Source: an uncultured Solibacteraceae bacterium (lineage in GTDB: Bacteria; Acidobacteriota; Terriglobia; Bryobacterales; Bryobacteraceae). From it: a DNA stretch of 49,714 nucleotides. Both the position numbers and the translations under genes were made by a program. The notes beneath the pieces were generated by a model that saw nothing but the letters and a program-made list of their open reading frames with translations, ran no database searches and was not told the origin of the DNA. The stretch lies in contig CAYMHP010000001.1 in assembly GCA_964390225.1 (NCBI GenBank), positions 13,609-63,322 on the forward strand, given 5' to 3'. Within the stretch, counting starts at the first letter, position 1; every line of letters starts with the position of its first letter. Positions 32,181-49,714 of the stretch are shown here, piece by piece.

Positions 32181-33353
32181 TTACGGCGTCCACTTCATCG
32201 CCAGCACCGTTACGTCGTCGGATTGCGGCGCGCCCGATGTGAATTCGCGGACCGCGCCCAGAACCGCATCGATCATCTGGGCGGGCTGCTGCCCGGCAGC
32301 GCCAGCCAGCGCCGTTTTCAAACGCCGGTCGCCGAAGAAGTGTTGCTCGGCGTCCATTGCTTCATTCACTCCATCCGTGAACAGGAAAACGGAATCGCCG
32401 GGCGCCAGCCGCATCCGGCCGGTCTCGTACTGGGCGTCGGGCAGCAGTCCGATAACGACCCCCGCTGGCTTTTCAATATCGCGCAATTCGCCCGCCGCCG
32501 AGACCACATAAGGCGGGTTGTGCCCGCCAAGGCAGAATTCCAGCTCACCGGTATGGGTGTGCAGAATCGCATAGAACACGGTTACGTATACAGCGGCTTC
32601 GCCCTGGCCGCCCAGGACCTGATTGGCGTACAGGAGGCATTCGGCAGGCGAGACCCCCTGCAACGCGGTGGCGTGTAGCAGCGTGCGGCTCACTGCCATA
32701 AACAGTGCCGCGGGCACTCCTTTTCCGGAAACGTCGCCGATCAGGAAACCCAGGCGGTGCTCGTCAATCAGGAAGAAATCGTAAAAGTCGCCGCCCACCT
32801 GGCGCGCAGGAATCATCTCGGCGCGCAAGGAAAAGTCGTGCCGGTCGGGGAAGAACTCCCGCGGTAGGATCGAGGCCTGAATGCGGGCCGCAATCTCGAG
32901 CTCCTGTTCCAGCGCCACCAGCCGCGCGCGCGCCTCTTCGCCCCGCCGTTCGAGAGCGAGCGCCTCCTGCGTGCGCCTCAGGGTCGTTTCGAAATCCTGA
33001 AAGTCTATGGGTTTGGTGAGAAAGTCGAAGGCGCCGCGGTTCATCGCCGTGCGGATGTTCTGCATGTCGCCATACGCGGAAAGGATCACGGCTTTGACGA
33101 TCCGCTGATCCAGCCCATTTAGCTTGCCGAGCAGCGCCAGACCGTCCATCACGGGCATGTTGATGTCGGTGACGACCAGGCCCAAGTTGGGATCCGCGCC
33201 CAGCCGGTCCAGCGCCTCTTTCCCGTTGCGAGCGAATAGGAATTGAAACTCGCCGTTGCGGCGCTTGAACCGCTGCCGGATCAGCTCTTCGATATCGGGC
33301 TCGTCGTCGACGATTAGAACCCGCACTGGCGCTTTTTCGTCCGAAGCCGTCAT
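32181..33353 (-). CDS. response regulator fused to PP2C/SpoIIE-type serine phosphatase (RsbU-like)
   Basis: REC motifs (VLIVDDEPD, VVTDINMPVMDG, TKP) followed by PP2C motifs (GGDFYDF, GDVSGKG, TDGVNEA, DDVTVL). The start overlaps the upstream kinase stop by 4 nt. Confidence 0.9.
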   Translation of the reverse strand: MTASDEKAPVRVLIVDDEPDIEELIRQRFKRRNGEFQFLFARNGKEALDRLGADPNLGLVVTDINMPVMDGLALLGKLNGLDQRIVKAVILSAYGDMQNIRTAMNRGAFDFLTKPIDFQDFETTLRRTQEALALERRGEEARARLVALEQELEIAARIQASILPREFFPDRHDFSLRAEMIPARQVGGDFYDFFLIDEHRLGFLIGDVSGKGVPAALFMAVSRTLLHATALQGVSPAECLLYANQVLGGQGEAAVYVTVFYAILHTHTGELEFCLGGHNPPYVVSAAGELRDIEKPAGVVIGLLPDAQYETGRMRLAPGDSVFLFTDGVNEAMDAEQHFFGDRRLKTALAGAAGQQPAQMIDAVLGAVREFTSGAPQSDDVTVLAMKWTP

Positions 33354-35077
33354 GATTGACCCAAGAACCGGCGAGGCAGCTTCAACGTGAATTCCGTCCA
33401 GTCGCCTTCGCGTGAGTCGACCTGCATTTCTCCACGATGTTCTTGCACCACGATCTCGTAACTGATCGAAAGCCCGAGCCCGGTTCCCTCGCCCGCCGCC
33501 TTCGTGGTGAAGAACGGATCGAAGATGCGATCGAGAACGGCTGACGGAATACCGACGCCGTTGTCCCAGATTCTGACCTCGACGGTCTCCCCGTAGTTTC
33601 GCGTCGTAATCCGGATTGTTGGGATATAAGCCGATTGACCGGCCTGCGACTTTTTCCGGATGGCATAGAAGGCGTTAGAGGCGATGTTCAGAAAGACGCG
33701 GCTGAGGTCCTGCGGGATAACGTCGACCATTCCCACCTCGGGATCGTACGAGCCCTGAATATCCGCCTGAAATGAGTTGTCTTGAGCGCGCATCCCGTGA
33801 AACGCCAGGTTTACGTATTCGCGGACAAGCGCATTGAGGTCGGTAGCACGCCGCTCTCCGGGTTGGCCGCGCGAGTGCGCCAGCATGGCCCGGATGATGC
33901 TGTCGGCGCGCGCTCCGTGCTCGCGCACCTTGCCGATATTCTGCTCGAGATCGCTTGCGATTTCGCGCAGCTCCTGAACTTCTTCCGGCGCAAGCTTCCC
34001 GGCGACGCGGTCGAGAATGGCGGCTTGCTCATGCACCAGGTCGGCGCAGATTTCCGAAAAGTTCATGACGAAGTTCAGCGGATTTTTGATTTCGTGCGCC
34101 ACGCCCGCCGTCAGCGCTCCCAGCGACGCCAGTTTCTCCTGGACGCTCAGTTCCTCGCGGAGCCGTTTCTTTTCCAAAAGCGCCCCGATGCGCGCTCTCA
34201 GCAGCACGGGGTCGAATGGCTTAAACAGGTAATCTTCGGCGCCGATCTGGATGGCGCGAACGACGCCCGCCATCTCATCGAGCGCCGAGATGATCACTAC
34301 CGGGATCGCGCGCATGCGGCGATCCTCTTTCATGCGAGTGAGCACTTCGAATCCATCCATGACGGGCATCATGATGTCGAGCAGGACGAGGTCGAAATGC
34401 TCGGTGGCCACCCGGTCGAGCGCCTCGCTGCCGTTGCGCGCGGAGGCCACTGCGTAGCCCTGCCGCTTCAAACGCCGGCAGAGGATGTGGCGATTCGTGG
34501 AATTATCGTCGACAACCAGCAGACGGGCGCCGGAGCCAGCCGGCTGCGCCGTAGGCGCCTCCTGCGGTTCTTCGGAAGACTCGGGCGGCCGGGTATAACT
34601 CAGTAGCGCGACAAGCGAGGTCGCCGCCGACCGGATTCGCTGCAAGTCCTGAGGCCAATCGGGCGCGGCCCAATTTTCGGGCGCCCGCCCCAGTTCGTCG
34701 AGCGAGTGGCGTATGCGCTCCACCCGGGGCCGTATGTTTTCACACAGCCGCTCCACCTCGGCGAACGCGATAGAGTCGCGGTTGGCGAGCGCCTCGTTGA
34801 TGCTGCTCAACACCGCGCGCGCCGAAAACTCGATCGTCCGCAGCAGCTCGAGCGACTGCTTTTTGCCGGCGGCCGAGGCGTCTTCGATCAGCATCTCGGC
34901 GTAGCCAAGAATGTGATTCACCGGCGTGCGCGCGTTATGCCGTAGCTCGATCAGCTCCGCGTCGCGCAGCGTGCCGGGTTCGGGTTGAGGCGCAGGTGCA
35001 GTGTCGGCGGTCACTGGGTACTTTCTTCCTGATCGGTGCCGAAACGAGCGCCGATCCGAGGCGTTTGGCCGTGGCAT
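33350..35077 (-). CDS. hybrid histidine kinase: orphan HisKA-like helix, REC, HisKA, HATPase_c
   Basis: H-box-like [21 protein letters not shown] ([23 protein letters not shown]). A second H-box AHEIKNPLN. ATPase boxes NASNAFYA, DNGVGIP and GTGLGLS. Start uncertain: ATG 35077 or GTG 35014. The track start at 35362 would overlap the divergent regulator gene. Confidence 0.85.
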
Positions 35078-35110
35078 TGCGATTGCTGCAACTTGAGGGC
35101 CAAGGAACTC

Positions 35111-35491
35111 ATGCCCAAGATCCTGATCGTCGAGGACAACGAGATGAACCGCGACATGCTCCGGCGGCGGCTCGCTCGCAAGGGTTTTGAAACAATCGTA
35201 GCGGGCGATGGTTTGGACGGAGTCGCCATGGCTGCATCCGGTCAGCCGGACCTCATCCTCATGGACATGAGCCTTCCGGCGCTCGACGGGTGGGAAGCCA
35301 CCCGTCGAATCAAAGCATCTCCCGAAACCCATTCGATTCCGGTGATCGCCCTCACTGCTCACGCAATGGCGGGCGACCGTGAACGCGCCTTGGAGGCCGG
35401 ATGTGATGATTACGACACCAAACCCATCGAGTTCCCTGTGTTATTAGAGAAAATAGAGGCGCTGCTCGCCCACAGCCAATCGCGGCATTGA
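35111..35491 (+). CDS. single-domain (CheY-like) response regulator
   Basis: ATG at 35111 gives [30 protein letters not shown], and ALTAHA...DYDTKP. Confidence 0.9.
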
Positions 35492-40474: not shown

Positions 40475-41758
40475 TCACTCGGCCTCCCATCGAAACCGCA
40501 TCGCGGTCAGCAGCCCGAACAGCAGCGCGAAGCCCAGCAGCGCTGCTACGGGCGCAAGCGCGGCGCTGAACCCGAGCCCGCGCCAGGTCATCGCTTCCAG
40601 ACCGTCGATCGCCCACCGCGTAGGCACCGCCAGCGTCGCCTTCTGCAGCCACTGCGGCAGCAGGAAGGTCGGAAACCATGCGCCGCCGAGCATGACGATA
40701 ATCAACGTAACGAAAATAGCAAGTCCTCGCGTGGCCTCCGGTGTCTTGCCCAGCGCCGCCACGAGCAGCCCGAATGTCCCAGTCATCAGCGAAAGCGCCG
40801 CGCAGACCGCGAGGAATCCCGCCATGCTGCCTTCGATCCTGACCCCGAAGAACCACCGCGCGAAGGTGTAGTTCACCAGCAGAATGAAGAACGACAGGAT
40901 CGCTGCGCTCAGCGCGCGGCTGCCCAGCAGAGTCGCCCGCGAAAGAGGTGCGGCCCGGAAGCGCTTCCAAAGCCCCCGCTGCCGCTGTAACAGCAGTCCG
41001 ATTCCGATATCGATGCCGAAGAAAAGCACGAACTGCACCGTCATGCCGGCAAACGCGTGGCCGTAACCGTTGTACAGGACGCCCCGCCGCGCCGTGACTG
41101 CCTCGTCGTGCGTTTGAAACGGAATGCTGAGGCCGCCGGTCCGCCGCGCCGGCACTGAGCTCTGATTCCAACGCTCCACGCTGCGCAGCATGTCTTCTAG
41201 GGTTTTCTTTTCGTCCGGCTGCAAGTCCTGGCTGCGTTCGACATCGGCCAAGGCATCGTTCACGACGGCTTGTCCGCTTTCCCCCGTGAACATCTCCTGG
41301 CTCACTGCCTGCATCACATCGCCCGCGAGAATTCCTTCCACCATGCCGCGTTCGGCGGCGTGGGAGGGGTCGTAAAGAATCGTCAACTGAGGCTTCTGCC
41401 CCGACCGGAAAAACGCCCGCCCGGCATCGCTGCCGAAGTCCTTGGGAATCACGATCGCGACCGTGGCCGTACCCTTCCGTACGGCCTCGCGCCCCTCGTT
41501 GCGCGTGGCTGCTTTCACTGCCAGACTCTTCTCGTCGCTGAGGCGATGAACGATCTCCCGAGAGATTGTGCTCGAATCCTGGTCGACCGCCAGCACGGAA
41601 ATACGGCTGGTCTCGGGGTCCCCGCGGCGTCCTCCCGTGACGTATCCGATGAATGCTGCCAGAGCGATCGGAAGGGCGAAGCTCATCAATAAGGCGCGCC
41701 GGTCGGCGCGGAATAGCAGCAGGTCTTTGCGCACCAGGGCGCGTAGTGCGGTCATCAT
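40475..41758 (-). CDS. ABC-2 type transporter permease
   Basis: The start was moved to ATG 41758 (MMTALRALVRKDLLLF), which shares 1 nt with the ATPase stop (TGATG). N-terminal TM helix, a large extracytoplasmic loop, then five C-terminal TM helices, as is typical for ABC-2 permeases. Confidence 0.8.
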   Translation of the reverse strand: MMTALRALVRKDLLLFRADRRALLMSFALPIALAAFIGYVTGGRRGDPETSRISVLAVDQDSSTISREIVHRLSDEKSLAVKAATRNEGREAVRKGTATVAIVIPKDFGSDAGRAFFRSGQKPQLTILYDPSHAAERGMVEGILAGDVMQAVSQEMFTGESGQAVVNDALADVERSQDLQPDEKKTLEDMLRSVERWNQSSVPARRTGGLSIPFQTHDEAVTARRGVLYNGYGHAFAGMTVQFVLFFGIDIGIGLLLQRQRGLWKRFRAAPLSRATLLGSRALSAAILSFFILLVNYTFARWFFGVRIEGSMAGFLAVCAALSLMTGTFGLLVAALGKTPEATRGLAIFVTLIIVMLGGAWFPTFLLPQWLQKATLAVPTRWAIDGLEAMTWRGLGFSAALAPVAALLGFALLFGLLTAMRFRWEAE

Positions 41759-42696
41759 CAATCGCGCAAGCTCCTTCCCGTCATCGTGAGAAATACCGTT
41801 TCCAGATTCGGCCGCTCGCTGACTACATGCCGGTAGCGATAGCCGTGCTCCACCAGCCACTGCAAGATTCGCGGCGTCTCGGACGGCAGGTCGGAAACCC
41901 CGATCCGCAGGGCGCCGCCGCGCAACTCGGCCGACCGCACGCCCGCCAGCGCTTGGAGTTGTTCCACGCGAAACCCGTTGTTGTCGTGCTCCAGTTCGAT
42001 TTCCAAAACATTGCTTACCGGCAGCATCCGGTAAAGTCCCGCCAGCGTGTCGTTCGCGATCACTTTACCGTGATCGATAATCACGACCCGGTCGCACAGG
42101 CGCTCCGCCTCTTCCATGTAGTGCGTGGTGTAAAGAAGCGTTTTGCCGCGCTGTTTCAGCGTCTCCAGATTATCGAAAATGGCATTGCGGCTCTGCGGGT
42201 CCACTCCCACGGTAGGCTCGTCGAGCAGCAGAATCTGCGGATCGTGCAGCAGCGCGGCCGCCAGATTTAAGCGGCGCTTCATCCCGCCGCTGAAGGTCTT
42301 CACCCGCGATTTGGCGCGATCGGCGAGGCCCACCAGTTCGAGCGCCTCGGCCATCGTGCGCTTCGCGGATGCTATGTCGAGGCCGTAGAGCCCCGCGAAC
42401 AGGACGAGATTATCCCACGCCGCAAGTTCGTCATACAGCGCCAGGTCCTGCGGCACCAAGCCGATCTTTTGCTTCAGCGGATCGGTGTCGCCCGCGAGCG
42501 GGCGGCCTTCGACCAGCACTTCGCCGGAATCCGGCCGCAATAGGCCGGCAATCATCGAAACTGTGGTGGTCTTACCCGCGCCGTTGGGTCCGAGCAGGCC
42601 GATGGTGTCGCCCGCGGCCGCGCGCAACGACACGCCATCCACCGCTTTTATGGTTCCGTAGCTCTTGTTCAGGTCCCGCGCTTCGAGCATGGTCAC
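41758..42696 (-). CDS. ABC transporter ATP-binding protein (ABC-2/DrrA-like)
   Basis: Walker A GPNGAGKTT. Q-loop. Signature FSGGMKRRL. Walker B LLLDEPT. H-loop TTHYM. Confidence 0.92.
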   Translation of the reverse strand: MTMLEARDLNKSYGTIKAVDGVSLRAAAGDTIGLLGPNGAGKTTTVSMIAGLLRPDSGEVLVEGRPLAGDTDPLKQKIGLVPQDLALYDELAAWDNLVLFAGLYGLDIASAKRTMAEALELVGLADRAKSRVKTFSGGMKRRLNLAAALLHDPQILLLDEPTVGVDPQSRNAIFDNLETLKQRGKTLLYTTHYMEEAERLCDRVVIIDHGKVIANDTLAGLYRMLPVSNVLEIELEHDNNGFRVEQLQALAGVRSAELRGGALRIGVSDLPSETPRILQWLVEHGYRYRHVVSERPNLETVFLTMTGRSLRD

Positions 42697-42809
42697 TTGG
42701 GTTATTACGCTGTAGCGGAGAAAAAGTTCGCCTGCAGCCTTTCAAAATCGTACACGACCGCCGAAAGGATCCGCCGCTCCGCAGCATTTCCGCAGTGGAG
42801 GTGCACTCG

Positions 42810-43097
42810 ATGGCTCCCAAAGAATTCTTGCGCTTGACGGCCGCCGTGGCGGCGGGCTTCCTGGGAGGCGCCCTGTCACAAGGACTTCAGTCGGCATTGG
42901 CGCAGCAGCGAAATATCCCGCGCGTCCTCACCGCCGACCGTTTCGTCGCTACCGATGCAGCCGGAATGAAGCGCGCCGAAATGGGTGTGGACCGCGACGG
43001 CCACGCCGTCCTCCACCTTTATAACGACCGAGGCGTCTTGGTCTGGAGCGCTCCCGCTGGCCCGGGCAGGATTTGGCCGGCAGGCCCGGATCGCTGA
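42810..43097 (+). CDS. small secreted/anchored hypothetical protein
   Basis: Only the 3' part of track ORF 42369..43097 is plausible, because the rest is antisense to the ABC ATPase. ATG 42810 has GGAGG 9 nt upstream. The 95-aa product has a signal-like segment LRLTAAVAAGFLGGALSQGLQSALA. Confidence 0.5.
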   Translation: MAPKEFLRLTAAVAAGFLGGALSQGLQSALAQQRNIPRVLTADRFVATDAAGMKRAEMGVDRDGHAVLHLYNDRGVLVWSAPAGPGRIWPAGPDR

Positions 43098-43173: not shown

Positions 43174-43218
43174 TTGATTCCAATCGCAATTTGCAATATA
43201 TTTATCACAGATTGCGAT
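43174..43218 (+). promoter_or_regulatory. near-consensus sigma70-like promoter with embedded operator-like inverted repeat
   Basis: TTGATT (43174-43179), 17 nt, TATATT (43197-43202). Inverted repeat ATCGCAAT (43183-43190) / ATTGCGAT (43211-43218), plus a third related half-site TTTGCAAT (43190-43197). It ends directly at the XRE gene ATG (43219). Confidence 0.55.
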
Positions 43219-43734
43219 ATGCGGCTCGGCGAAAAAATCCGCTACCTCCGCGAAGTGGAAGGCACGCTTCGCGGACTCAACCGCGAGTTGTCCCAACTCG
43301 AACTCGCCCGCCTCATCGAAAAAGAGCAGGGCAAGTCCATTAGCCAGAGCTATCTTTCGCAAATCGAAAGTGGCAGCCGGCCGCACCTGACCAATTCCAC
43401 GCGTATGCTGCTGGCGCGTTTCTTCAAAGTGCATCCCGGTTACCTGGTGGATGATCCCGAGGGTTTCCAGAACGAGCTGATTTCCGATGTGGGAGCGCTC
43501 GAAGACAAGCTCGATCTCTGGCTGGTGAGCGGAGCCGAGCGGTTCTGCCGCGATCCCGAGTTGCACCACGCTCTGCTCGCCGTGGCGCGGCACGCCGATT
43601 CGCGGCTCTGCCTGGTGTTGTTGGGAAAGATCCTGGAGAATCCCGGTCTGGCCGAACGGCTGATGGAAGTGCTCAGGCCCGCTGCGGCGAAAGCCCCGTC
43701 GCCGGTAGCGACCGAGGCAAGGAGGCGCGCATGA
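43219..43734 (+). CDS. XRE-family helix-turn-helix transcriptional regulator with C-terminal helical extension
   Basis: ATG 43219 (M16 of the track ORF). HTH_3-like region LSQLELARLIEKEQGKSISQSYLSQIESG. About 90-aa C-terminal domain of unknown function. The stop overlaps the nfeD start (ATGA). Confidence 0.8.
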   Translation: MRLGEKIRYLREVEGTLRGLNRELSQLELARLIEKEQGKSISQSYLSQIESGSRPHLTNSTRMLLARFFKVHPGYLVDDPEGFQNELISDVGALEDKLDLWLVSGAERFCRDPELHHALLAVARHADSRLCLVLLGKILENPGLAERLMEVLRPAAAKAPSPVATEARRRA

Positions 43735-44312
43735 CCTGGTCGGATTTCTACCTCACCTGCTTCCTGATTGGCTTCGCGCTGAGCGCGCTCGCGCTGGTGG
43801 CGGGCACGACTCATCTGCATATGCCGCACCTCCACCTCCACCATGGGATCCACACGCCGCATGGCGGCTCCGGCGTGACGGTGCCTTGGTTCAACTTCGG
43901 CTCAATTGCCGGATTCCTGGCCTGGTTCGGCGGTACCGGTTACCTGCTCGAGCGCTATTACGGCGTCTGGGTCGTTACCGCGCTGGCCCTTTCGACCCTC
44001 AGCGGGCTCGCGGCGGCTTCGGTCGTCTTCTGGTTTCTGGCCAAGGTGCTGATCGCGCGCGAAGCGTCGCTGGACCCCGCTGATTACGAGATGGCCGGAG
44101 TGCTTGGCCGCGTGAGCATCCCCATCCGCACGGGTGGAACGGGTGAAATTATCTATTCCCAGGAGGGGACGCGCCGCGTTTGTGGCGCCCGCGCCGACGA
44201 GTCGATGGCCATCCCGAAAGGCGCCGAAGTGATTGTTACCCGCTACGAAAAAGGGATTGCGTACGTGCGCCCGTGGGTTGACCCGCTGGACGAGTTGGAG
44301 AACAAAGCTTAG
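43731..44312 (+). CDS. NfeD-family membrane protein (YqiJ-like), His-rich loop
   Basis: 193 aa. Three TM helices, then a C-terminal OB-fold-type NfeD segment (GVLGRVSIPIRTGGTGEIIY...AIPKGAEVIVTRYEKGIAYVRP). It lies immediately upstream of a flotillin, the classical NfeD-SPFH pairing. Confidence 0.8.
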   Translation: MTWSDFYLTCFLIGFALSALALVAGTTHLHMPHLHLHHGIHTPHGGSGVTVPWFNFGSIAGFLAWFGGTGYLLERYYGVWVVTALALSTLSGLAAASVVFWFLAKVLIAREASLDPADYEMAGVLGRVSIPIRTGGTGEIIYSQEGTRRVCGARADESMAIPKGAEVIVTRYEKGIAYVRPWVDPLDELENKA

Positions 44313-44324
44313 GAGTGCCCGACT

Positions 44325-45761
44325 ATGTATAACCCGACGTTCGTGATTGCCGGCCTCATGGTGCTGGCGCTTGTCTTCCTGATGGCCGTGTTTGCCAAGC
44401 TGTTCCGCAAAGCAGGGCCGCACGAGGCCCTCATCGTTTACGGTTTCCGCGGCACGCGCGTGGTAAAGGGCCGGGGCACCGTGATCTTCCCCATGGTCGA
44501 AAGCTGCCGTGGCTTGTCGCTCGAACTGATGTCGTTTGATGTGGCGCCGCAGCAGGACCTGTACACGCGGCAGGGCGTAGCCGTGACGGTGGAGGCCGTG
44601 GCGCAGATCAAGGTGAAGTCCGATCCGGAATCGATCCTCACCGCCGCCGAGCAGTTCCTTACCAAGCCGCCGCAGGAGCGCGAAGGGCTGATCCGCCTGG
44701 TGATGGAAGGCCACCTGCGCGGCATCATCGGCCAGCTCACGGTGGAAGAGATCGTCAAACAGCCCGAGATGGTGGGCGAGCGTATGCGGTCCACCTGCGC
44801 CGACGATATGAACAAGATGGGGCTTGAAGTCATTTCCTTCACCATCAAGGAAGTCCGCGACAAGAACGAATACATCACCAACATGGGCCGGCCCGATGTC
44901 GCGCGCATCAAGCGCGACGCCGATGTCGCCGCCGCGGAGGCCGAGCGCGATACGGCCATTAAGCGGGCCCTCGCTGCCCGGGAAGCGGCCATCGCCAAGG
45001 CTCAGGCCGACCAGGAACGCGTGCTCGCCGAGGCGCTGTCCATGACCAAGCAGGCCGAGGCGCAGCGCGACCTCGAAGTGAAGAAGGCCGAGTACAACGA
45101 GATGGTTAAGAAACAGCAGGCCCAGGCGGACAAGGCCTACGAGATCCAGACCAACGTCATGCAACAGCAAGTGCGTGCCGAAGAGGTCACCATTCACCAG
45201 ATTGAAAAAGAGCATGAAGTGAAGGTGCAGGAGGCCGAAATCAACCGCCGCGACCGCGAGCTGACGGCCACCGTGCTCAAACAGGCCGAATTCGAGCGCA
45301 AGCGCATCGAGACCCTGGCGGAAGCCGAGCGCCAGCGCCTGGTCGTGGAGGCCGAGGGACGCGCCGCCGCCATCCGTGCGCAGGGCGAAGCCGAAGCCGA
45401 AATCATTTTCAAGAAGGGTGAGGCCGAAGCCAAAGCGATGAACGTCAAGGCCGAGGCCTACCAGGAATTCAACCAGGCCGCGATCGTAGACAAGCTGATC
45501 ACCAATATGCCGGAGGTCGTCAAAGCGCTGGCCGCGCCTCTGGCCAACGTCGACAAGATCACCGTAGTATCCACCGGAAACGGTACCTCGGCGGGATTGA
45601 ACAAGATTACGGGTGACATCACCCAAATGGCGGCGCAAATCCCCGCGCTCTTCGAAACGCTTTCCGGCATGCCCCTGAATGAGCTGTTCGCGAAGGTGCG
45701 GATGATTGGCGATAAGTCGCCTAAGCCGGAGGACAAGTCCAAGTCCGCGGGCGCGCAATAA
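44325..45761 (+). CDS. flotillin (SPFH/Band-7 domain protein, FloT/YuaG-like)
   Basis: 478 aa. N-terminal membrane hairpin. SPFH core (VEAVAQIKV, LRGIIGQLTVEEI). A long Glu/Ala-rich coiled-coil flotillin domain (AEAERDTAIKRA...EAEGRAAAIRAQGEAEAE). Confidence 0.9.
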   Translation: MYNPTFVIAGLMVLALVFLMAVFAKLFRKAGPHEALIVYGFRGTRVVKGRGTVIFPMVESCRGLSLELMSFDVAPQQDLYTRQGVAVTVEAVAQIKVKSDPESILTAAEQFLTKPPQEREGLIRLVMEGHLRGIIGQLTVEEIVKQPEMVGERMRSTCADDMNKMGLEVISFTIKEVRDKNEYITNMGRPDVARIKRDADVAAAEAERDTAIKRALAAREAAIAKAQADQERVLAEALSMTKQAEAQRDLEVKKAEYNEMVKKQQAQADKAYEIQTNVMQQQVRAEEVTIHQIEKEHEVKVQEAEINRRDRELTATVLKQAEFERKRIETLAEAERQRLVVEAEGRAAAIRAQGEAEAEIIFKKGEAEAKAMNVKAEAYQEFNQAAIVDKLITNMPEVVKALAAPLANVDKITVVSTGNGTSAGLNKITGDITQMAAQIPALFETLSGMPLNELFAKVRMIGDKSPKPEDKSKSAGAQ

Positions 45762-45840
45762 ATATTCACCCCGTTCCGGGGCAGGGAACATTCAGCCCCT
45801 CCCGTAAGGGTGGGGGTAGGGAAACCGAAGGGAGGATCCC

Positions 45841-46503
45841 ATGGCACTGTTAGAACGCGTATCCACACTGATCCGGGCCAACCTCAACGACCTCATCGAC
45901 AAGGCCGAGGACCCCGAAAAGATGATCAAGCAACTGATCCTTGACATGGAGAACCAGCTGTTGCAGGTCAAAACCCAGGTCGCGATCTCCATCGCGGACC
46001 AGCATGTGCTCGAGAAAAAGCTGCAGGAGAACCAGGAAAACGAGCGGCAATGGATCCGCCGCGCCGAACTCGCCGTCGACAAAAAAGACGACGCGCTGGC
46101 GCGGGCCGCCATCGAGCGCTCGATGAGTTACAAAGGCATGACCGAGAGCTTCCGCCAGCAGGTGGAAGATCAGAAGACACAGGTCGAAAATCTGAAGACG
46201 GCACTGCTGAAATTGCAGCAGAAACTTGCGGAAGCGCAGGCCAAGAGCGAAATGCTCATCGCCCAGCACCGCCGCTCGCGCGCGATGGGGAAAGCCACGG
46301 AGGCCGGCGCCGCCATCGGCAACGGATCCAACGCCGCCGCCTTCGATCGCATGAAGGCCAAGGTGCAGCACACGGAGGCTGCCACCCAGGCGCACTCCGA
46401 GTTGCTGAGCGATGACGTGGAAGACCGCTTCGCCGCGCTCGAGAAACAGGACGAAATCAATCGCCTATTGGAGGAACTCAAGGCCAAGCGGAGCGCCGGA
46501 TAA
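45841..46503 (+). CDS. pspA: PspA/IM30 (ESCRT-III-like) family protein, paralogue 1
   Basis: 220 aa. N-terminus MALLERVSTLIRANLNDLIDKAEDPEKMIKQLILDMENQL parallels E. coli PspA (..NANINALLEKAEDPQK..MIQEME). All-helical coiled-coil composition. GGGAGGA RBS. Confidence 0.9.
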   Translation: MALLERVSTLIRANLNDLIDKAEDPEKMIKQLILDMENQLLQVKTQVAISIADQHVLEKKLQENQENERQWIRRAELAVDKKDDALARAAIERSMSYKGMTESFRQQVEDQKTQVENLKTALLKLQQKLAEAQAKSEMLIAQHRRSRAMGKATEAGAAIGNGSNAAAFDRMKAKVQHTEAATQAHSELLSDDVEDRFAALEKQDEINRLLEELKAKRSAG

Positions 46504-46598
46504 TGGAACTTCGGCGCCGCCGGTCGCGTACTCCATTAGGTGGCGCACGCCTCCGGCTTGCGCGGGCGCGCAGCGCCTCAATCGCTTGAGCCGCGAGG

Positions 46599-46629
46599 CG
46601 CCCGGTTACAAAAACGCCCGGTTACAAAA
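46599..46629 (+). repeat. tandem direct repeat, 2 x CGCCCGGTTACAAAA (period 16 nt)
   Basis: Exact 15-nt copies at 46599-46613 and 46615-46629. They sit in the 141-nt gap between pspA-1 and the chaperone-like gene, 16 nt upstream of its ATG and 8 nt upstream of its GAGGAG RBS. Confidence 0.9.
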
Positions 46630-46644
46630 CAAATACGAGGAGCT

Positions 46645-47064
46645 ATGACACTTACAACCAGCCCACAACTCGACCAAATTCACGCCCTGCTGGCGGAGCA
46701 CGGTTACGAAGTCTCCGAGCGGGCGCCCGACACTCTTCGCATCCAGGAGGTGCAGAGCGGAGTGGCCATTCAGGCCGTGCTTCAGGGACAAATCCTGTTC
46801 CTGTCTCTGACCTGCACCACGGTGCCTCGCTCCGCGATCACGCCGGACCTCATGAACCGCATGCTCGCGGCGGATAATGGCATCTCCACTTCCCATTTTC
46901 AGCTCTATGAGCTGGGCGGCAGCCAGGTGGCCGTTACGTTGAACAATTTTTGCAAACTGCAGGATATGGGGCCCGAGGACGAAGACGACATTCTCTCGTG
47001 CGTCCATTTCCTGCTGGTGGACGTATTGAGTGCGCGCCGGCTGCTCAGCGACCTTCAATCATAA
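46645..47064 (+). CDS. YjfI/DUF2170-like protein (YbjN / CesT-type chaperone fold candidate)
   Basis: ATG 46645 (M36 of the track ORF), preceded by GAGGAG. The 139-aa acidic protein has a pattern (QAVLQGQILFLSLTC...MNRMLAADNGISTSHFQL...VAVTLNN) that resembles E. coli YjfI as I remember it. It sits directly upstream of a YjfJ-like PspA, as in yjfIJ. Confidence 0.6.
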   Translation: MTLTTSPQLDQIHALLAEHGYEVSERAPDTLRIQEVQSGVAIQAVLQGQILFLSLTCTTVPRSAITPDLMNRMLAADNGISTSHFQLYELGGSQVAVTLNNFCKLQDMGPEDEDDILSCVHFLLVDVLSARRLLSDLQS

Positions 47065-47078
47065 AAGGAGAATGAACT

Positions 47079-47867
47079 ATGTCATTTCTGAACGACTTCT
47101 TTAGCAGACTGGGCCGCGTGGCCCGCGGCCAGGCCAACCAAGGCGTGGATGTCATCGAGGATGCCACCTTCGAAGCGACCGTCAAACAGACCGTCGCCGA
47201 TATGAAGAACGAGCTGAACAACGTGGTCCGTGCCTCCGCGTCGGCCATGAGCAACTACAACCGTCTGGATGCCGAGTATCAGAAGTACGTGCGGCAGGCT
47301 CAGGAATGGAAGGATCGCGCCGGACAGGCTCTCGACGCCGGCAACGAGGATCTCGCCCGCAAGGCACTGGCGAAAAAGACCGAGTGCGACCGGCAAGCGG
47401 CTTCCATGCAACAGGGGGTCGCCTCCGCTCAGCAGGCCAGCGAAAAACTCAAGCAGCAGGTCGCCGAGTTGAAGCGTAAGATCGACGAGGGTGAGCGCAC
47501 TGCTACTACTCTGGTGGCGCGCAAGAATGCCGCGTCGGCGCAGCGCAAAGTCTCCGAAGCCATGGCGGGCGTCGGCAATGCCGACAATGCTTTCTCCGCC
47601 TTGAGCCGCTTCGAGGAATCGGTGGCGCGCGAAGAAGCCACTGCCAAGGCCTTCGATGAACTCGCCTCCACCGGCAAGGACGAAGATCTCGAAAAACAAT
47701 TCGCCGAACTCGGCGGCAAGGGGGTCGATGCCGAACTGGCAGCATTGAAACAGGAGCGGCAGCAGGGGGCATCGAAGCCCGCGGCTCCGTACCTGCCCAA
47801 AGAACTGCCTGCCGGCGGCACTTCGCTTCAAGTGGGGCAATCTGCCAGAGACAAGGCCAACGCATAG
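47079..47867 (+). CDS. PspA/IM30 family protein, paralogue 2 (YjfJ-like)
   Basis: 262 aa. AAGGAG RBS. An amphipathic N-terminus MSFLNDFFSRLGRV, a long coiled coil, and a C-terminal KDEDLEKQFAELGG block resembling the YjfJ tail (DLDEKLAEAGIGG). Confidence 0.85.
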   Translation: MSFLNDFFSRLGRVARGQANQGVDVIEDATFEATVKQTVADMKNELNNVVRASASAMSNYNRLDAEYQKYVRQAQEWKDRAGQALDAGNEDLARKALAKKTECDRQAASMQQGVASAQQASEKLKQQVAELKRKIDEGERTATTLVARKNAASAQRKVSEAMAGVGNADNAFSALSRFEESVAREEATAKAFDELASTGKDEDLEKQFAELGGKGVDAELAALKQERQQGASKPAAPYLPKELPAGGTSLQVGQSARDKANA

Positions 47868-47880
47868 CCGCTGAACCCCG

Positions 47881-48510
47881 ATGGCTACGTTCTTCATCCT
47901 GGCCATTCTGATCGTTCTGCTAGGAGTCGTGCTGATGCAACTCTTCAGGAAACCCGTCGCGAGCCCGAGACCCGCGGCCGATCTTGCGAACCTCAAGGTC
48001 ACCGACGCCCGTGCCGGAGATGTACTTTCCGTCGCGGGCGCCGGAGACGACCTGAGCGACCTCGATTTCACCGCCGATCGCTCGGTGTGGTATGACGCCG
48101 GCGGCCCGCGCTGGTTCGAACTGAGCGGCCCCTACCGCGAGCGCCGCGTGGCGCTCCGCGTCGTCGCGGGTGAAGACACCGAGGTCGCGCTACACAGCGA
48201 TCCCCGGAAGCTGATGTTGGACGATCTCGGCCTCTCCGAGCAGGATCTGGCCGACATCGACGAGCGTCAAAACCCCGCCGACTCGTTCGAATTCGACGGC
48301 AAAGTCTGGCTGTATCGCCGCAGCCGCGAGGTGAAAGCCTTCCGCGACGGCCAGCCCCAGCCCTCCGCGTTTTACTACTGGGAGTTCCAGGAAGATGGAG
48401 GCAAACGCCTGCTGGCCATTCGCAAACCCGAGGGCGAGCCATTCGCCGTCGTTCTGTATACCGGAATTCCCGAGGGAGATGTCACCGTTTACCGGCCGAC
48501 GCCGCAATAG
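47881..48510 (+). CDS. membrane-anchored DUF4178-like protein (YjfK-position)
   Basis: 209 aa. N-terminal TM helix FFILAILIVLLGVVLMQLF. Two beta-rich half-repeats (GDVLSVAG..DFTADRSVWYD..WFEL..RVALRV and FEFDGKVWLY..YYWEF..LLAIRK..AVVLYTG). The family call is tentative. Confidence 0.55.
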   Translation: MATFFILAILIVLLGVVLMQLFRKPVASPRPAADLANLKVTDARAGDVLSVAGAGDDLSDLDFTADRSVWYDAGGPRWFELSGPYRERRVALRVVAGEDTEVALHSDPRKLMLDDLGLSEQDLADIDERQNPADSFEFDGKVWLYRRSREVKAFRDGQPQPSAFYYWEFQEDGGKRLLAIRKPEGEPFAVVLYTGIPEGDVTVYRPTPQ

Positions 48511-48522
48511 GAGGCGTGTTCC

Positions 48523-49714
48523 ATGAGCCGAACCCAATTGAAAATCTCTGCCGCCGTTCTCACGACGCTGATCGTCGCCGTACTGATCAACGCGTTCGAT
48601 CATCTGCCGGGGAGCGTTCGCGCGCAGATCGATAGTGAACGCGCGGCGCTCGCCTCCGCAGGGTCGCGCGTGACCAGCGCGCAGCAAACGGTTGCTCGCG
48701 AAACCAAGGCCGACCCCGCTCTCTTCCAGACGGTCGCGGCGAGTAGCCAGTGGCCGGCCCGATTCCAGCAGTCCGCCGGAGTTCTCGATTCCGCCAAACG
48801 CGACATGGAGGAACTCTCGCGCCTCGAGAAGTCCGGCCATCACCGCGACCAGCAGCGTGCTACCACTCTGCTCGCCCACGAACGCGGCCTGCGCGAGTCG
48901 GCGTTGAACCAGGCGGCCGCCATCGAAAGCGAGGCCGCGCGTTGGACCGAGCGCAAGCAGCACCTCGCTTCCGAATTGCAGCAGATGGAGCATGATTATC
49001 AGGCGATCCGCGCCTTCGATACGGCTCCCCTCACCGCGACCATCCAGCGCGCCGAGACCGATTGGCCGGAAAAGAAGTCCGATCTCGAATCGCGCCTGGC
49101 CGCGGTTACCGGCATTCCCGCCCAGTCGGAGACGCTCTGGCAATCGAGCGCGGGGCTCCGGCATCAGGCCGCCGCGGGAGACACGAAAGATCTCGATTTC
49201 GGTGCGCTGTTCGCCACTGCCGACCAGCTAAAGGCCTCGGCCGCCGCGCTGCCCAAGCAATCCGCGGAACTCGAATCCCTCGCCGGCCAGCTATACGATT
49301 CGTGGGACAAGATCCTGGTCGATATGGACGTGCGCGGCATCGGATCCAACCGCGCCTTCGACCAGAAAATCCGCACCGTGCGTACGCACCTCGGCAACAC
49401 CACCTCGGACGAAAAATGGGTGCAGGTTTCACCGGCCACCTACGATGCCATGCGGAGCGACCTCGGCATGGCAATCGAGCACAAGCCCGCCGGCAAGTAC
49501 GATTCGGAAGCCGAGCACGTTGCGCAGCCCGCCGGCTTCGCTTACATGGCGCCGCCGTCCCAAGGCTCGAACCAATACGGTTATTGGGAGCATCGCGATG
49601 GCCAGAGCTTCTGGGTGTGGTACGGCAAGTACGCGCTCCTGCGCGATCTGCTCTTCAATCACTCCTATCGTCCGCTCCCGCAGTACGAGTGGGAGGGCTA
49701 CCGCAGCTCGCGCA
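48523..49714 (+). CDS. membrane-anchored coiled-coil protein of unknown family (3' end outside window)
   Basis: Not in the ORF track because it has no stop in the window. ATG 48523 has GGAGG 9 nt upstream. The frame stays open for 397 codons to the window edge. N-terminal TM helix ISAAVLTTLIVAVLINAF, about 250 aa of helical/coiled-coil sequence, then a Trp/Tyr-rich segment (GYWEHRDGQSFWVWYGKYALLRDLLF). Confidence 0.65.
   Translation, partial: MSRTQLKISAAVLTTLIVAVLINAFDHLPGSVRAQIDSERAALASAGSRVTSAQQTVARETKADPALFQTVAASSQWPARFQQSAGVLDSAKRDMEELSRLEKSGHHRDQQRATTLLAHERGLRESALNQAAAIESEAARWTERKQHLASELQQMEHDYQAIRAFDTAPLTATIQRAETDWPEKKSDLESRLAAVTGIPAQSETLWQSSAGLRHQAAAGDTKDLDFGALFATADQLKASAAALPKQSAELESLAGQLYDSWDKILVDMDVRGIGSNRAFDQKIRTVRTHLGNTTSDEKWVQVSPATYDAMRSDLGMAIEHKPAGKYDSEAEHVAQPAGFAYMAPPSQGSNQYGYWEHRDGQSFWVWYGKYALLRDLLFNHSYRPLPQYEWEGYRSSR

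Follow-up and report, generated by a model that had tools for sequence, protein, structure and literature searches.

Two PspA/IM30 envelope-stress operons of Bryobacterales joined head to tail in a Solibacteraceae genome, with a probable common XRE regulator

Proteins of the PspA/IM30/Vipp1 family are bacterial relatives of ESCRT-III, and both their targeting to damaged membranes and their regulation are poorly understood outside Proteobacteria and Firmicutes. We analyzed a locus with two such proteins at the end of a 49,714-nucleotide (nt) stretch of DNA, hereafter the window, from an uncultured Solibacteraceae bacterium (assembly GCA_964390225.1, contig CAYMHP010000001.1, positions 13,609 to 63,322). 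Eight genes, g1 to g8, all on the + strand, extend from position 43219 to beyond the window end at 49714. The first four (module A) encode an XRE/Cro-type helix-turn-helix (HTH) regulator, an NfeD-family membrane protein, a FloT-like flotillin and PspA-1; the other four (module B) encode a small protein with a predicted CesT/Tir fold, PspA-2, a DUF4178-like membrane-anchored protein and a further membrane-anchored protein. Our preferred reading, to which we assign a probability of roughly 0.7, is that the locus consists of two independently conserved PspA/IM30 envelope-stress operons of Bryobacterales, placed head to tail and sharing one regulator.

Both modules correspond to gene contexts that have already been catalogued in silico. 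For module A, the portion of Popp et al. (2022, mSystems, PMC9239133) compared here describes an in silico network of an HTH regulator, NfeD, Band_7/FloT and PspA in Acidobacteriota, with Band7_Flot beside PspA for 11 of 19 acidobacterial PspAs. Module A combines these four components, again in Acidobacteriota, and is an instance of this network. That portion gives domain-level neighborhood statistics only, and reports no operator, no link to a second PspA module and no bPH_4 or Pro_CA_2 genes. For module B, Ravi et al. (2024, mSystems, PMC11237479) describe CesT/Tir-PspA dyads, to which a first group adds a transmembrane-Band7-flotillin protein, YqiJ/YuaF and an AAA+ ATPase, and a second group DUF4178, YjfL/DUF350, the Ctha_1186 lipoprotein and a seven-transmembrane (7TM) spermine synthase. 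The window resembles these operons in having a CesT/Tir-fold protein directly upstream of PspA, followed by a DUF4178-like protein, and resembles the first group in having a flotillin and a YuaF-type NfeD in the same neighborhood. It differs in that AAA+ ATPase, DUF350, spermine synthase and ribbon-helix-helix (RHH) genes are absent, in that g5 is not detectably a DUF2170 protein by sequence, and in that a PspA and an XRE regulator belong to the flotillin module itself. The locus joins two catalogued operon types in tandem and is not a new class of system. The first-pass annotation, an earlier reading of this DNA from its letters alone, had called it a candidate undescribed system, which was an overstatement in view of these two catalogues; its additional statement that no system of this composition has been characterized experimentally appears to be correct.

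The bac operon of P. aeruginosa is the only CesT/Tir-PspA dyad that has been studied experimentally. It encodes BacA (PA3732/PA14_16140, DUF2170) and BacB (PA3731, PspA), is negatively controlled by the BacA dimer, has been connected to biofilm and osmotic-stress phenotypes and has been proposed to be sigma-54 dependent; the authors also report an unpublished BacA-BacB interaction (PMC10948618). BacA is directly upstream of a PspA homologue and is the best structural match of g5 (template modelling score, TM, 0.71), but the two proteins have only 12-13% sequence identity and their downstream partners differ. For the co-regulation of PspA with NfeD and flotillin, the best functional analogue is the sigma-W regulon of B. 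subtilis, which includes pspA-ydjGHI, yuaF-floT-yuaI and ydbST (PMC3498285). There, a PspA operon, an NfeD-flotillin operon and bPH-domain membrane proteins are under the common control of an extracytoplasmic function (ECF) sigma factor, and an SPFH protein links PspA to the membrane according to the compared portion of a further study (PMC8581546). However, this regulon belongs to a different phylum, its PspA and flotillin genes are in separate operons, and it has neither an XRE repressor nor a CesT-like protein, whereas the ECF-type motif of the window precedes module B only.

Two other systems had been invoked by the first-pass annotation, which interpreted the locus as a fusion of three modules, namely an NfeD-flotillin operon, a yjf-type operon and a clgR-pspA unit. 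In the E. coli yjfIJKLMC operon, too, the first product, YjfI, has a CesT/Tir fold and the second, YjfJ, is a PspA paralogue. Comparison of E. coli YjfI, YjfK and YjfJ with g5, g7, g6 and g4 by hhalign or BLASTP gave no similarity, and DUF2491, DUF350, DUF1190 and ATP-grasp ligase domains were not found among the window genes with Pfam. Orthology with the yjf operon was rejected because both sequence similarity and the accessory genes are absent, and only the dyad, at the level of the fold, is common to this operon and module B. The mycobacterial clgR-pspA-pspM-pspN unit is similar in that a Cro/XRE-type HTH regulator heads a PspA operon. In the window, however, NfeD and flotillin genes lie between regulator and PspA, g1 has an extra conserved domain of ~90 amino acids (aa), and its closest relative among solved structures is EspR and not ClgR. 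No Pfam match to the PspN domain DUF3046 was obtained for any window gene, none of which resembles the membrane protein PspM, and this assignment was rejected because PspM and PspN are absent. The regulator is native to the NfeD-flotillin-PspA operon, which it heads in 80 of 80 loci, and was not grafted from a clgR-pspA unit, so that two modules have to be distinguished rather than three. None of the classical Psp regulators (PspF/PspBC, LiaFSR) is present at the locus, as had been noted previously.

The separation into two modules follows from gene order in relatives. Two sets of loci were collated. The B-anchored set, with g8 as anchor and one genome per species, comprises 80 loci, nearly all of them from metagenome-assembled genomes (MAGs) assigned to Bryobacterales, Solibacteraceae or Terriglobia. 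The A-anchored set, with g1 as anchor in metagenomes, started from at least 544 relatives, of which 80 loci were retained. The order g5-g6-g7-g8 was kept in every B-anchored locus with enough flanking sequence, and the order g1-g2-g3-g4 in 80/80 metagenome loci within the limits of each contig. Modules A and B are independently conserved four-gene units of Bryobacterales (Acidobacteriota). For 62 B-anchored loci, 6 kb or more of upstream sequence was available, and none of them had module A upstream of g5, and among the 27 A-anchored loci with at least 1.5 kb past g4, none had module B after g4. Because the order A-then-B was never found and each module is conserved separately, the window is a rare, possibly unique, head-to-tail joining of two otherwise separate operons, and the expectation that the eight-gene order would recur in other genomes was not borne out. 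The truncation of g8 had led to the suspicion that the locus may be larger, but an extension further downstream is unlikely, since 75 related loci show no conserved gene behind g8.

The two modules are not scattered at random. In 8 of the 80 species, module A was found 0.6-7 kb downstream of module B, with intervening genes that are sometimes on the opposite strand. By a rough estimate, chance would place A within 10 kb of B in well under 1% of genomes of several Mb, and modules A and B thus lie close together more often than chance predicts. In the MAG GCA_003175985.1, they are on different contigs.

Relatives usually have one or both of two additional genes after PspA-1, encoding a bPH_4 membrane protein of ~132 aa (23 loci, for example L114:13286-13681) and a putative carbonic anhydrase, Pro_CA_2, of ~136 aa (27 loci, for example L172:7735-8148), both counted at a tblastn E-value of at most 1e-6. 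Neither gene is present in the window. In one locus, the Pro_CA_2 gene is placed after g8 (L066:11916-12317), which together with the usual position behind PspA-1 hints that module B may have inserted between PspA-1 and the bPH_4/Pro_CA_2 genes.

Module A is preceded by a sigma-70-type promoter overlapped by a putative XRE operator (43174-43218, + strand). The promoter, TTGATT-17-TATATT at 43174-43202, agrees with the consensus at 9/12 positions, and a 16-nt inverted repeat with 81% complementarity (43183-43198 / 43203-43218) covers the -10 box. The operator is an imperfect palindrome, ATCGCAATTTGCAATA / TATCACAGATTGCGAT, whose last base directly adjoins the g1 start codon. This start is the ATG at 43219, which is kept in relatives; the first-pass annotation had opened the reading frame at TTG 43174, which is the start of the -35 box. 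The promoter/operator was conserved upstream of every g1 homologue examined, with the consensus cTcTTGACA.CaATCGCAAtTTGCAATATa.TaATcACAgATTGCgAT over 75 sites, followed by ATG at g1.

Many stand-alone copies of module B have the same 44-nt cassette too, at a distance of 67-277 nt before g5. Two or more operator half-sites were present in 30/75 unique module B loci (~40%), compared to 1.1% of random segments. A strict version of the cassette pattern had 31 matches in 3.1 Mb, counting both strands, and all 31 were on the + strand directly upstream of either g1 or g5. In GCA_003175985.1, the cassette precedes both of the unlinked modules, with module B on contig PSRJ01000078. As module B often carries the same operator cassette while sited elsewhere in the genome, the simplest reading suggests that both modules belong to one XRE regulon, in which the XRE protein would control both operons. 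Module B of the window is without an XRE cassette of its own. As far as can be told, the occurrence of a common XRE cassette at unlinked modules is new, since it is absent from the published accounts with which we compared it.

A second promoter-like element is nearly universal for module B. Of 75 unique loci, 73 have GAAC-N16/17-CGTA before g5, compared to 1.6% of random 150-nt segments; the consensus is cGGAACt-N16/17-gCGTAt, with a spacer of 17 nt in 66 loci and 16 nt in 7. An AAC -35 element and a CGT -10 element at 16-17 nt spacing form the classic promoter pattern of ECF sigma factors, and the sigma-W promoter TGAAAC-N16-CGTA resembles the GGAAC-N16/17-CGTA motif. The module B motif has the sequence features of an ECF-sigma promoter and would be used by a sigma factor of this type. 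Like the operator, this near-universal element appears to be new as far as can be told, being absent from the published accounts compared. In the window, it takes the form GGAACT-N16-CGTA (46505-46530, + strand), begins 2 nt past the g4 stop codon and is the sole + strand match in 49.7 kb. The earlier description of one near-consensus promoter/operator for the locus was right as to that element, but the promoter at 43174 is not the sole conserved promoter-like element.

The leader between motif and g5 is unusual in the window. The distance from motif to g5 ATG has a median of 26 nt in relatives (72 other species), whereas the window leader (46531-46644) has 114 nt and is ~88 nt longer. It holds the 16-nt tandem repeat CGCCCGGTTACAAAAA (46599-46629, + strand; 1.9 copies, 100% match), which had been seen in the first reading of the g4-g5 gap. 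The repeat was not found in the other loci, the extra ~88 nt have no counterpart in relatives, and no significant structure was predicted for them.

Some observations concern the possible cognate sigma factor and other copies of the motif. In two lineages (L004:6163-7830 on the - strand, and L035), genes for an ECF sigma factor of 165 aa, a 100-aa protein and a 294-aa protein are divergent from module B; this set is a candidate cognate sigma/anti-sigma system for GGAAC-N17-CGTA and was not conserved elsewhere. A dedicated sigma/anti-sigma pair adjacent to module B was rejected as a general feature, being present in only these 2 lineages. The only other GGAAC-N17-CGTA match in the window is at 35411-35435 on the - strand, ~50 nt upstream of a minus-strand gene for a hybrid histidine kinase/response regulator (33350-35362), behind which comes a response-regulator-SpoIIE phosphatase gene (32181-33353); the match may reflect the same ECF regulon or chance. 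A GAAC...CGTA-like string in the g3-g4 gap was discarded as a promoter candidate, because its spacer has 13 nt and this gap is only ~25-35 nt long in relatives.

The junctions within the locus agree with the spacing reported previously. The g1 stop codon overlaps the g2 start as ATGA, the gaps g2-g3, g3-g4 and g4-g5 measure 12, 79 and 141 nt, and the gaps g5-g6, g6-g7 and g7-g8 measure 14, 13 and 12 nt. The 79-nt gap is real, but the hairpins ascribed to it, like those of the g4-g5 gap, do not exceed shuffled sequence in strength (z = -0.04 and -1.29). No terminator-like site was detected on the + strand in either gap, and an Rfam search gave no matches. Intergenic hairpins as terminators or structured RNAs were dismissed, because folding was no better than for shuffled sequence and there was no + strand terminator-like site.

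The g4/g5 junction, on which the head-to-tail arrangement depends, could in principle be a chimera in which the assembly joined two loci, from a single genome or from two related ones. No other of ~90 comparable loci has this arrangement, metagenome assemblies can be mis-joined at similar sequences, and PspA-1 and PspA-2 are paralogous. A 1328-nt contig from the public run SRR36607662 is, however, 100% identical to window positions 45896-47223 and covers g4, the g4-g5 gap, g5 and the start of g6. Because this contig reproduces the junction exactly, the junction is not an obvious assembly artefact. PspA-1 and PspA-2 have 29% protein identity, far too low for a mis-join, the GC content is even across the junction, and the ECF-type motif begins just 2 nt after the g4 stop, which makes the junction look like a clean biological fusion. 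Overall, we regard a chimera as very unlikely. An exact-sequence look-up gave no match for g7, and for g5 only the 1.3-kb contig.

If the junction is genuine, the eight genes could form one obligate, previously undescribed composite machine that is co-transcribed from a single promoter. This would fit with the common strand, the tight spacing, the lack of terminator-like sites in the gaps and the A/B junction in the sequencing-run contig, and also with the proximity of A and B in ~10% of species and the common operator cassette, the latter of which indicates that the modules are functionally related. The synteny counts largely refute such a machine: none of the 62 B-anchored and none of the 27 A-anchored loci have the order A-then-B, where the modules are linked elsewhere, B comes first and the genes between B and A can lie on the opposite strand, and the modules of GCA_003175985.1 are on different contigs. 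The conserved internal promoter-like element before g5 also speaks against it. We consider this possibility improbable, and favor two operons that became joined.

The individual protein assignments for module A were largely confirmed by profile searches. The product of g1 (43219-43734, + strand, 171 aa) has an HTH_3 match in Pfam (E = 5e-6), followed by a conserved C-terminal domain of ~90 aa without known fold. Its closest solved relative, EspR, matches in the HTH region only (E = 2e-4), and its identity across the 80 metagenome loci is 80-91%. The NfeD assignment of g2 (43731-44312, + strand) also held: the exact protein and all 120 best relatives carry precomputed PF25842 NfeD_TM matches, the relatives are named "NfeD family protein" by NCBI, and the sole match of the family profile in PDB is YuaF (2k14, E = 0.0078) over the whole soluble domain. 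Scores against PF01957 were 14-16 bits, under the cut-off of 29.1. The g2 product has three apparent transmembrane segments, counted by eye, and a C-terminal soluble domain resembling an oligonucleotide/oligosaccharide-binding (OB) fold; with this NfeD transmembrane region and OB-like domain, it belongs to the YuaF/YqiJ type of NfeD. Between transmembrane segments 1 and 2, there is a His-rich loop, HLHMPHLHLHHGIHTPHG (window 43812-43865, residues ~28-45), in which eight of the histidines were invariant in six homologues and which may be a metal-binding or pH-sensing site.

As in known NfeD-SPFH operons, g2 is directly upstream of g3 on the same strand. The g3 product (44325-45761, + strand, 478 aa) is a flotillin, with an N-terminal Band_7 domain (100.9 bits, cut-off 23.6, E = 1e-28) and a C-terminal Flot domain (34.0 bits, cut-off 27, E = 3e-8), both above gathering scores. 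It matches NCBIfam FloT NF058507 over profile positions 3-474 of 477 (E = 5e-100), but with 335.8 bits it remains below the equivalog cut-off of 700, and is FloT-like in architecture rather than an equivalog. The g4 product (45841-46503, + strand, 220 aa) matches PF04012 over profile positions 2-218 of 220 (133.7 bits, cut-off 33.9, E = 9e-39). In module B, the product of g6 (47079-47867, + strand, 262 aa) does so over positions 3-219 of 220 (138.6 bits, E = 3e-40). Both are members of the PspA/IM30 family, as predicted, but neither is orthologous to E. coli PspA or LiaH, since the cut-offs of TIGR02977, NF007974 and NF045984 were not reached. The best scores against these equivalogs were 133.2 bits for g4 and 87.5 bits for g6, with a cut-off of 242.95, and the match of g4 to TIGR02977 (E = 1e-38) was likewise too weak for an equivalog. 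With only 29% identity, g4 and g6 are old paralogues.

The small protein g5 (46645-47064, + strand, 139 aa) was recognizable by structure only. There was no Pfam match even at E <= 10, and PDB searches with the single sequence or the profile gave only noise. The AlphaFold2 model has a predicted local distance difference test score (pLDDT) of 88.8, a predicted TM score (pTM) of 0.81 and a type III chaperone-like fold, with helix, four strands, helix, two strands and helix, one strand more than in the published topology. The best Foldseek match was BacA/PA14_16140 (8q8o, a DUF2170 protein; E = 3e-5, TM 0.71), and further matches were YbjN (TM 0.68), ExsC, SycN, SicP and CesT, with a probability of 1.00 throughout. 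On the basis of this model, g5 is assigned to the CesT/Tir superfamily. The earlier designation of g5 as YjfI-like can be kept for the YjfI/BacA-like fold. At the sequence level, there is no match to DUF2170/YjfI (PF09938): hhalign of the g5 family against E. coli YjfI gave a probability of 0.2%, and the g5 family profile did not recover BacA in PDB.

The products of g7 and g8 are both membrane-anchored, and no enzyme domain was detected in either. For g7 (47881-48510, + strand, 209 aa), the match to DUF4178 (PF13785) has 18.5 bits (E = 0.0023), under the gathering score of 25, but 7 of 28 members of the g7 family have DUF4178 matches, the best of them with E = 2.7e-6. The DUF4178-like label therefore holds, with g7 as a putative divergent member at the family level. 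The g8 gene (48523-49714, + strand) is cut by the window end, with 397 of ~510 aa visible, and had neither a Pfam match nor a significant fold match in PDB. Its product starts with a transmembrane anchor, continues with a helical bundle that was modelled with confidence (aa ~30-256) and then has a conserved beta-rich domain (aa ~260-397). The best Foldseek matches of the g8 model in PDB were COMMD proteins (E = 0.025, TM < 0.2), which were dismissed as chance. Clustering at 50% identity leaves 839 representatives of the g8 family. In full-length g8 relatives, the last ~110 aa (for example, P0002 residues ~400-505) form a low-complexity tail enriched in Gly, Ser, Tyr and Arg, where the motif (S/G)GxxRDSxYAS recurs and the sequence GRRFGRRR stands at the very end. 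This composition is unusual for a domain that is predicted to face outward, and the window ends just before the tail. To judge by its architecture and neighbors, g8 probably belongs to the family that Ravi et al. (PMC11237479) describe as "lipoprotein signal + Ctha_1186 + low-complexity".

The neighborhoods of distant g8 relatives differ from those in Bryobacterales. Four such loci were informative. L168 has g7-like, g8-like, DUF350 and Spermine_synth genes, with an hhalign probability of 97.5% for the g7 link. L169 has g5-like, PspA and g7-like genes (hhalign probability 100% for g5 and 99.9% for g7), a g8::DUF350 fusion and a further DUF350 gene. L170 has a DUF4178::g8 fusion, then DUF350, then Spermine_synth, and L171 has HTH_17, PspA, DUF4178, g8-like and DUF350 genes, with a weak precomputed PF13785 match for the g7 counterpart. 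The Rosetta-stone fusions have 697 aa (g8::DUF350, L169:6001-8094) and 917 aa (DUF4178::g8, L170:2933-5686). These fusions in distant lineages argue that g7 and g8 work together. The fusions are also consistent with a DUF4178 domain facing the cytoplasm and a g8 body facing outward, an orientation derived from the positive-inside rule applied by eye. Because the distant g8 neighborhoods carry DUF350, Spermine_synth and DUF4178, module B can be seen as a pared-down relative of the operons in the second CesT/Tir-PspA group described by Ravi et al. (2024). The core of that group, CesT/Tir-PspA with a DUF4178-like protein, is present, and DUF350 and spermine synthase are absent, both here and across Bryobacterales.

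These neighborhoods raise the possibility that module B serves above all in envelope modification, polyamine-linked or other, rather than in stress repair, with g7-g8 as an ancestral core that works with DUF350 and spermine-synthase-like enzymes, with PspA-2 and g5 as accessories, and with partners encoded elsewhere in the case of Bryobacterales. DUF350 and/or Spermine_synth genes in all four distant loci speak for it, as does the description by Ravi et al. (PMC11237479) of the same association, for which they propose polyamine monitoring. However, no DUF350 gene (by tblastn) and no spermine-synthase gene was found in the window or in 160 related, Bryobacterales-type loci, the g5-PspA-2 pair is invariant in Bryobacterales, and g7 and g8 do not have detectable enzyme domains. 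We judge a primary role of this kind to be unlikely, and retain the reading of module B as a PspA/IM30 envelope-stress operon.

According to this preferred reading of two joined operons, module A would be transcribed from its strong sigma-70-type promoter, with the -10 region inside the palindromic operator. The likeliest protein to bind this operator is the XRE regulator encoded by the module itself, which would amount to autoregulation. Module A would supply an NfeD-flotillin membrane scaffold together with PspA-1, and module B a second, distantly related PspA together with g5 as CesT/Tir-fold partner or chaperone, g7 as a cytoplasm-facing DUF4178 anchor and g8 as an outward-facing protein. 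Module B of the window has lost its own XRE cassette; its expression would depend on read-through transcription that starts at the module A promoter and on the retained ECF-type promoter, with an ECF sigma factor using the GGAAC/CGTA motif for induction. Homology and gene context point to membrane protection and repair as the physiological role. Recruitment of PspA-1 may be assisted by flotillin, and that of PspA-2 by g5, g7 and g8, with g5 presumably binding PspA-2.

Several points weigh against this interpretation. The XRE operator is found in only 30/75 (~40%) of the stand-alone module B loci, so that not every copy of module B would belong to the XRE regulon. The GGAAC/CGTA motif might conceivably work as a leader RNA element, with transcription starting at the upstream promoter; an ECF sigma gene is not conserved beside module B (2 lineages only), and none was found in the window at a tblastn E-value of at most 1e-8. 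The contig from SRR36607662 that confirms the junction could derive from the window's own sample. The C-terminal domain of g8 was modelled with low confidence (pLDDT 30-60), and the outward orientation of the g8 body comes only from the positive-inside rule applied by eye.

A more ambitious reading, which we put forward tentatively and with the odds somewhat against it, is that Bryobacterales have a two-branch IM30 system under joint control of one XRE repressor and one ECF sigma factor. In the first branch, the flotillin/NfeD scaffold would recruit PspA-1. In the second, g7 (with its cytoplasmic DUF4178 domain) and g8 (with its outward-facing helical bundle, beta domain and disordered tail) would be a trans-membrane sensor pair that recruits PspA-2 after its release from a CesT-like holder. 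If this is true, the window shows both branches welded into one transcription unit, and g7-g8 would represent a novel type of envelope sensor serving ESCRT-III-like polymers, common to the polyamine-linked PspA operons of other phyla.

Just upstream of the g1 promoter, an open reading frame (42369-43097, + strand) ends in a segment of ~95 aa with a signal-peptide-like beginning, MAPKEFLRLTAAVAAGFLGGALS..., of which the last 73 aa have no Pfam match; this frame was not conserved beside module A in other loci. An ABC-2-type transporter pair lies directly upstream on the - strand (ATPase 41758-42696, permease 40475-41860), and beyond it there are genes for an M13 peptidase and PAS/GAF histidine kinases, none of them conserved beside either module elsewhere. 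This setting is relevant to the idea that the locus is an anti-phage defense or abortive-infection system built on membrane-remodelling proteins, which could be suspected because PspA was discovered as a phage-shock protein and XRE regulators heading an operon are common in defense islands. PADLOC gave no significant match, with one marginal coiled-coil match (E = 7e-4), the flanking genes are of housekeeping and signalling type rather than a defense island, and both modules occur throughout the order at varied genomic positions and without hallmarks of mobile elements. A defense function is thus highly unlikely, and an envelope-stress function remains the preferred one.

The value of the locus lies in its being a well-delimited variant and a source of regulatory hypotheses, rather than in a new class of system. 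It contains two divergent PspA paralogues, each with a candidate recruiter of its own, the flotillin/NfeD scaffold in one case and a CesT-like protein with the DUF4178 and g8 anchors in the other. The DUF4178::g8 and g8::DUF350 fusions lead to concrete interaction hypotheses for three families without known function. A clearly defined operator that is common to unlinked operons, in combination with an ECF-type promoter, makes for a compact and testable system, and the operator is an experimental handle for a regulon in soil Acidobacteriota, which are abundant and little studied.

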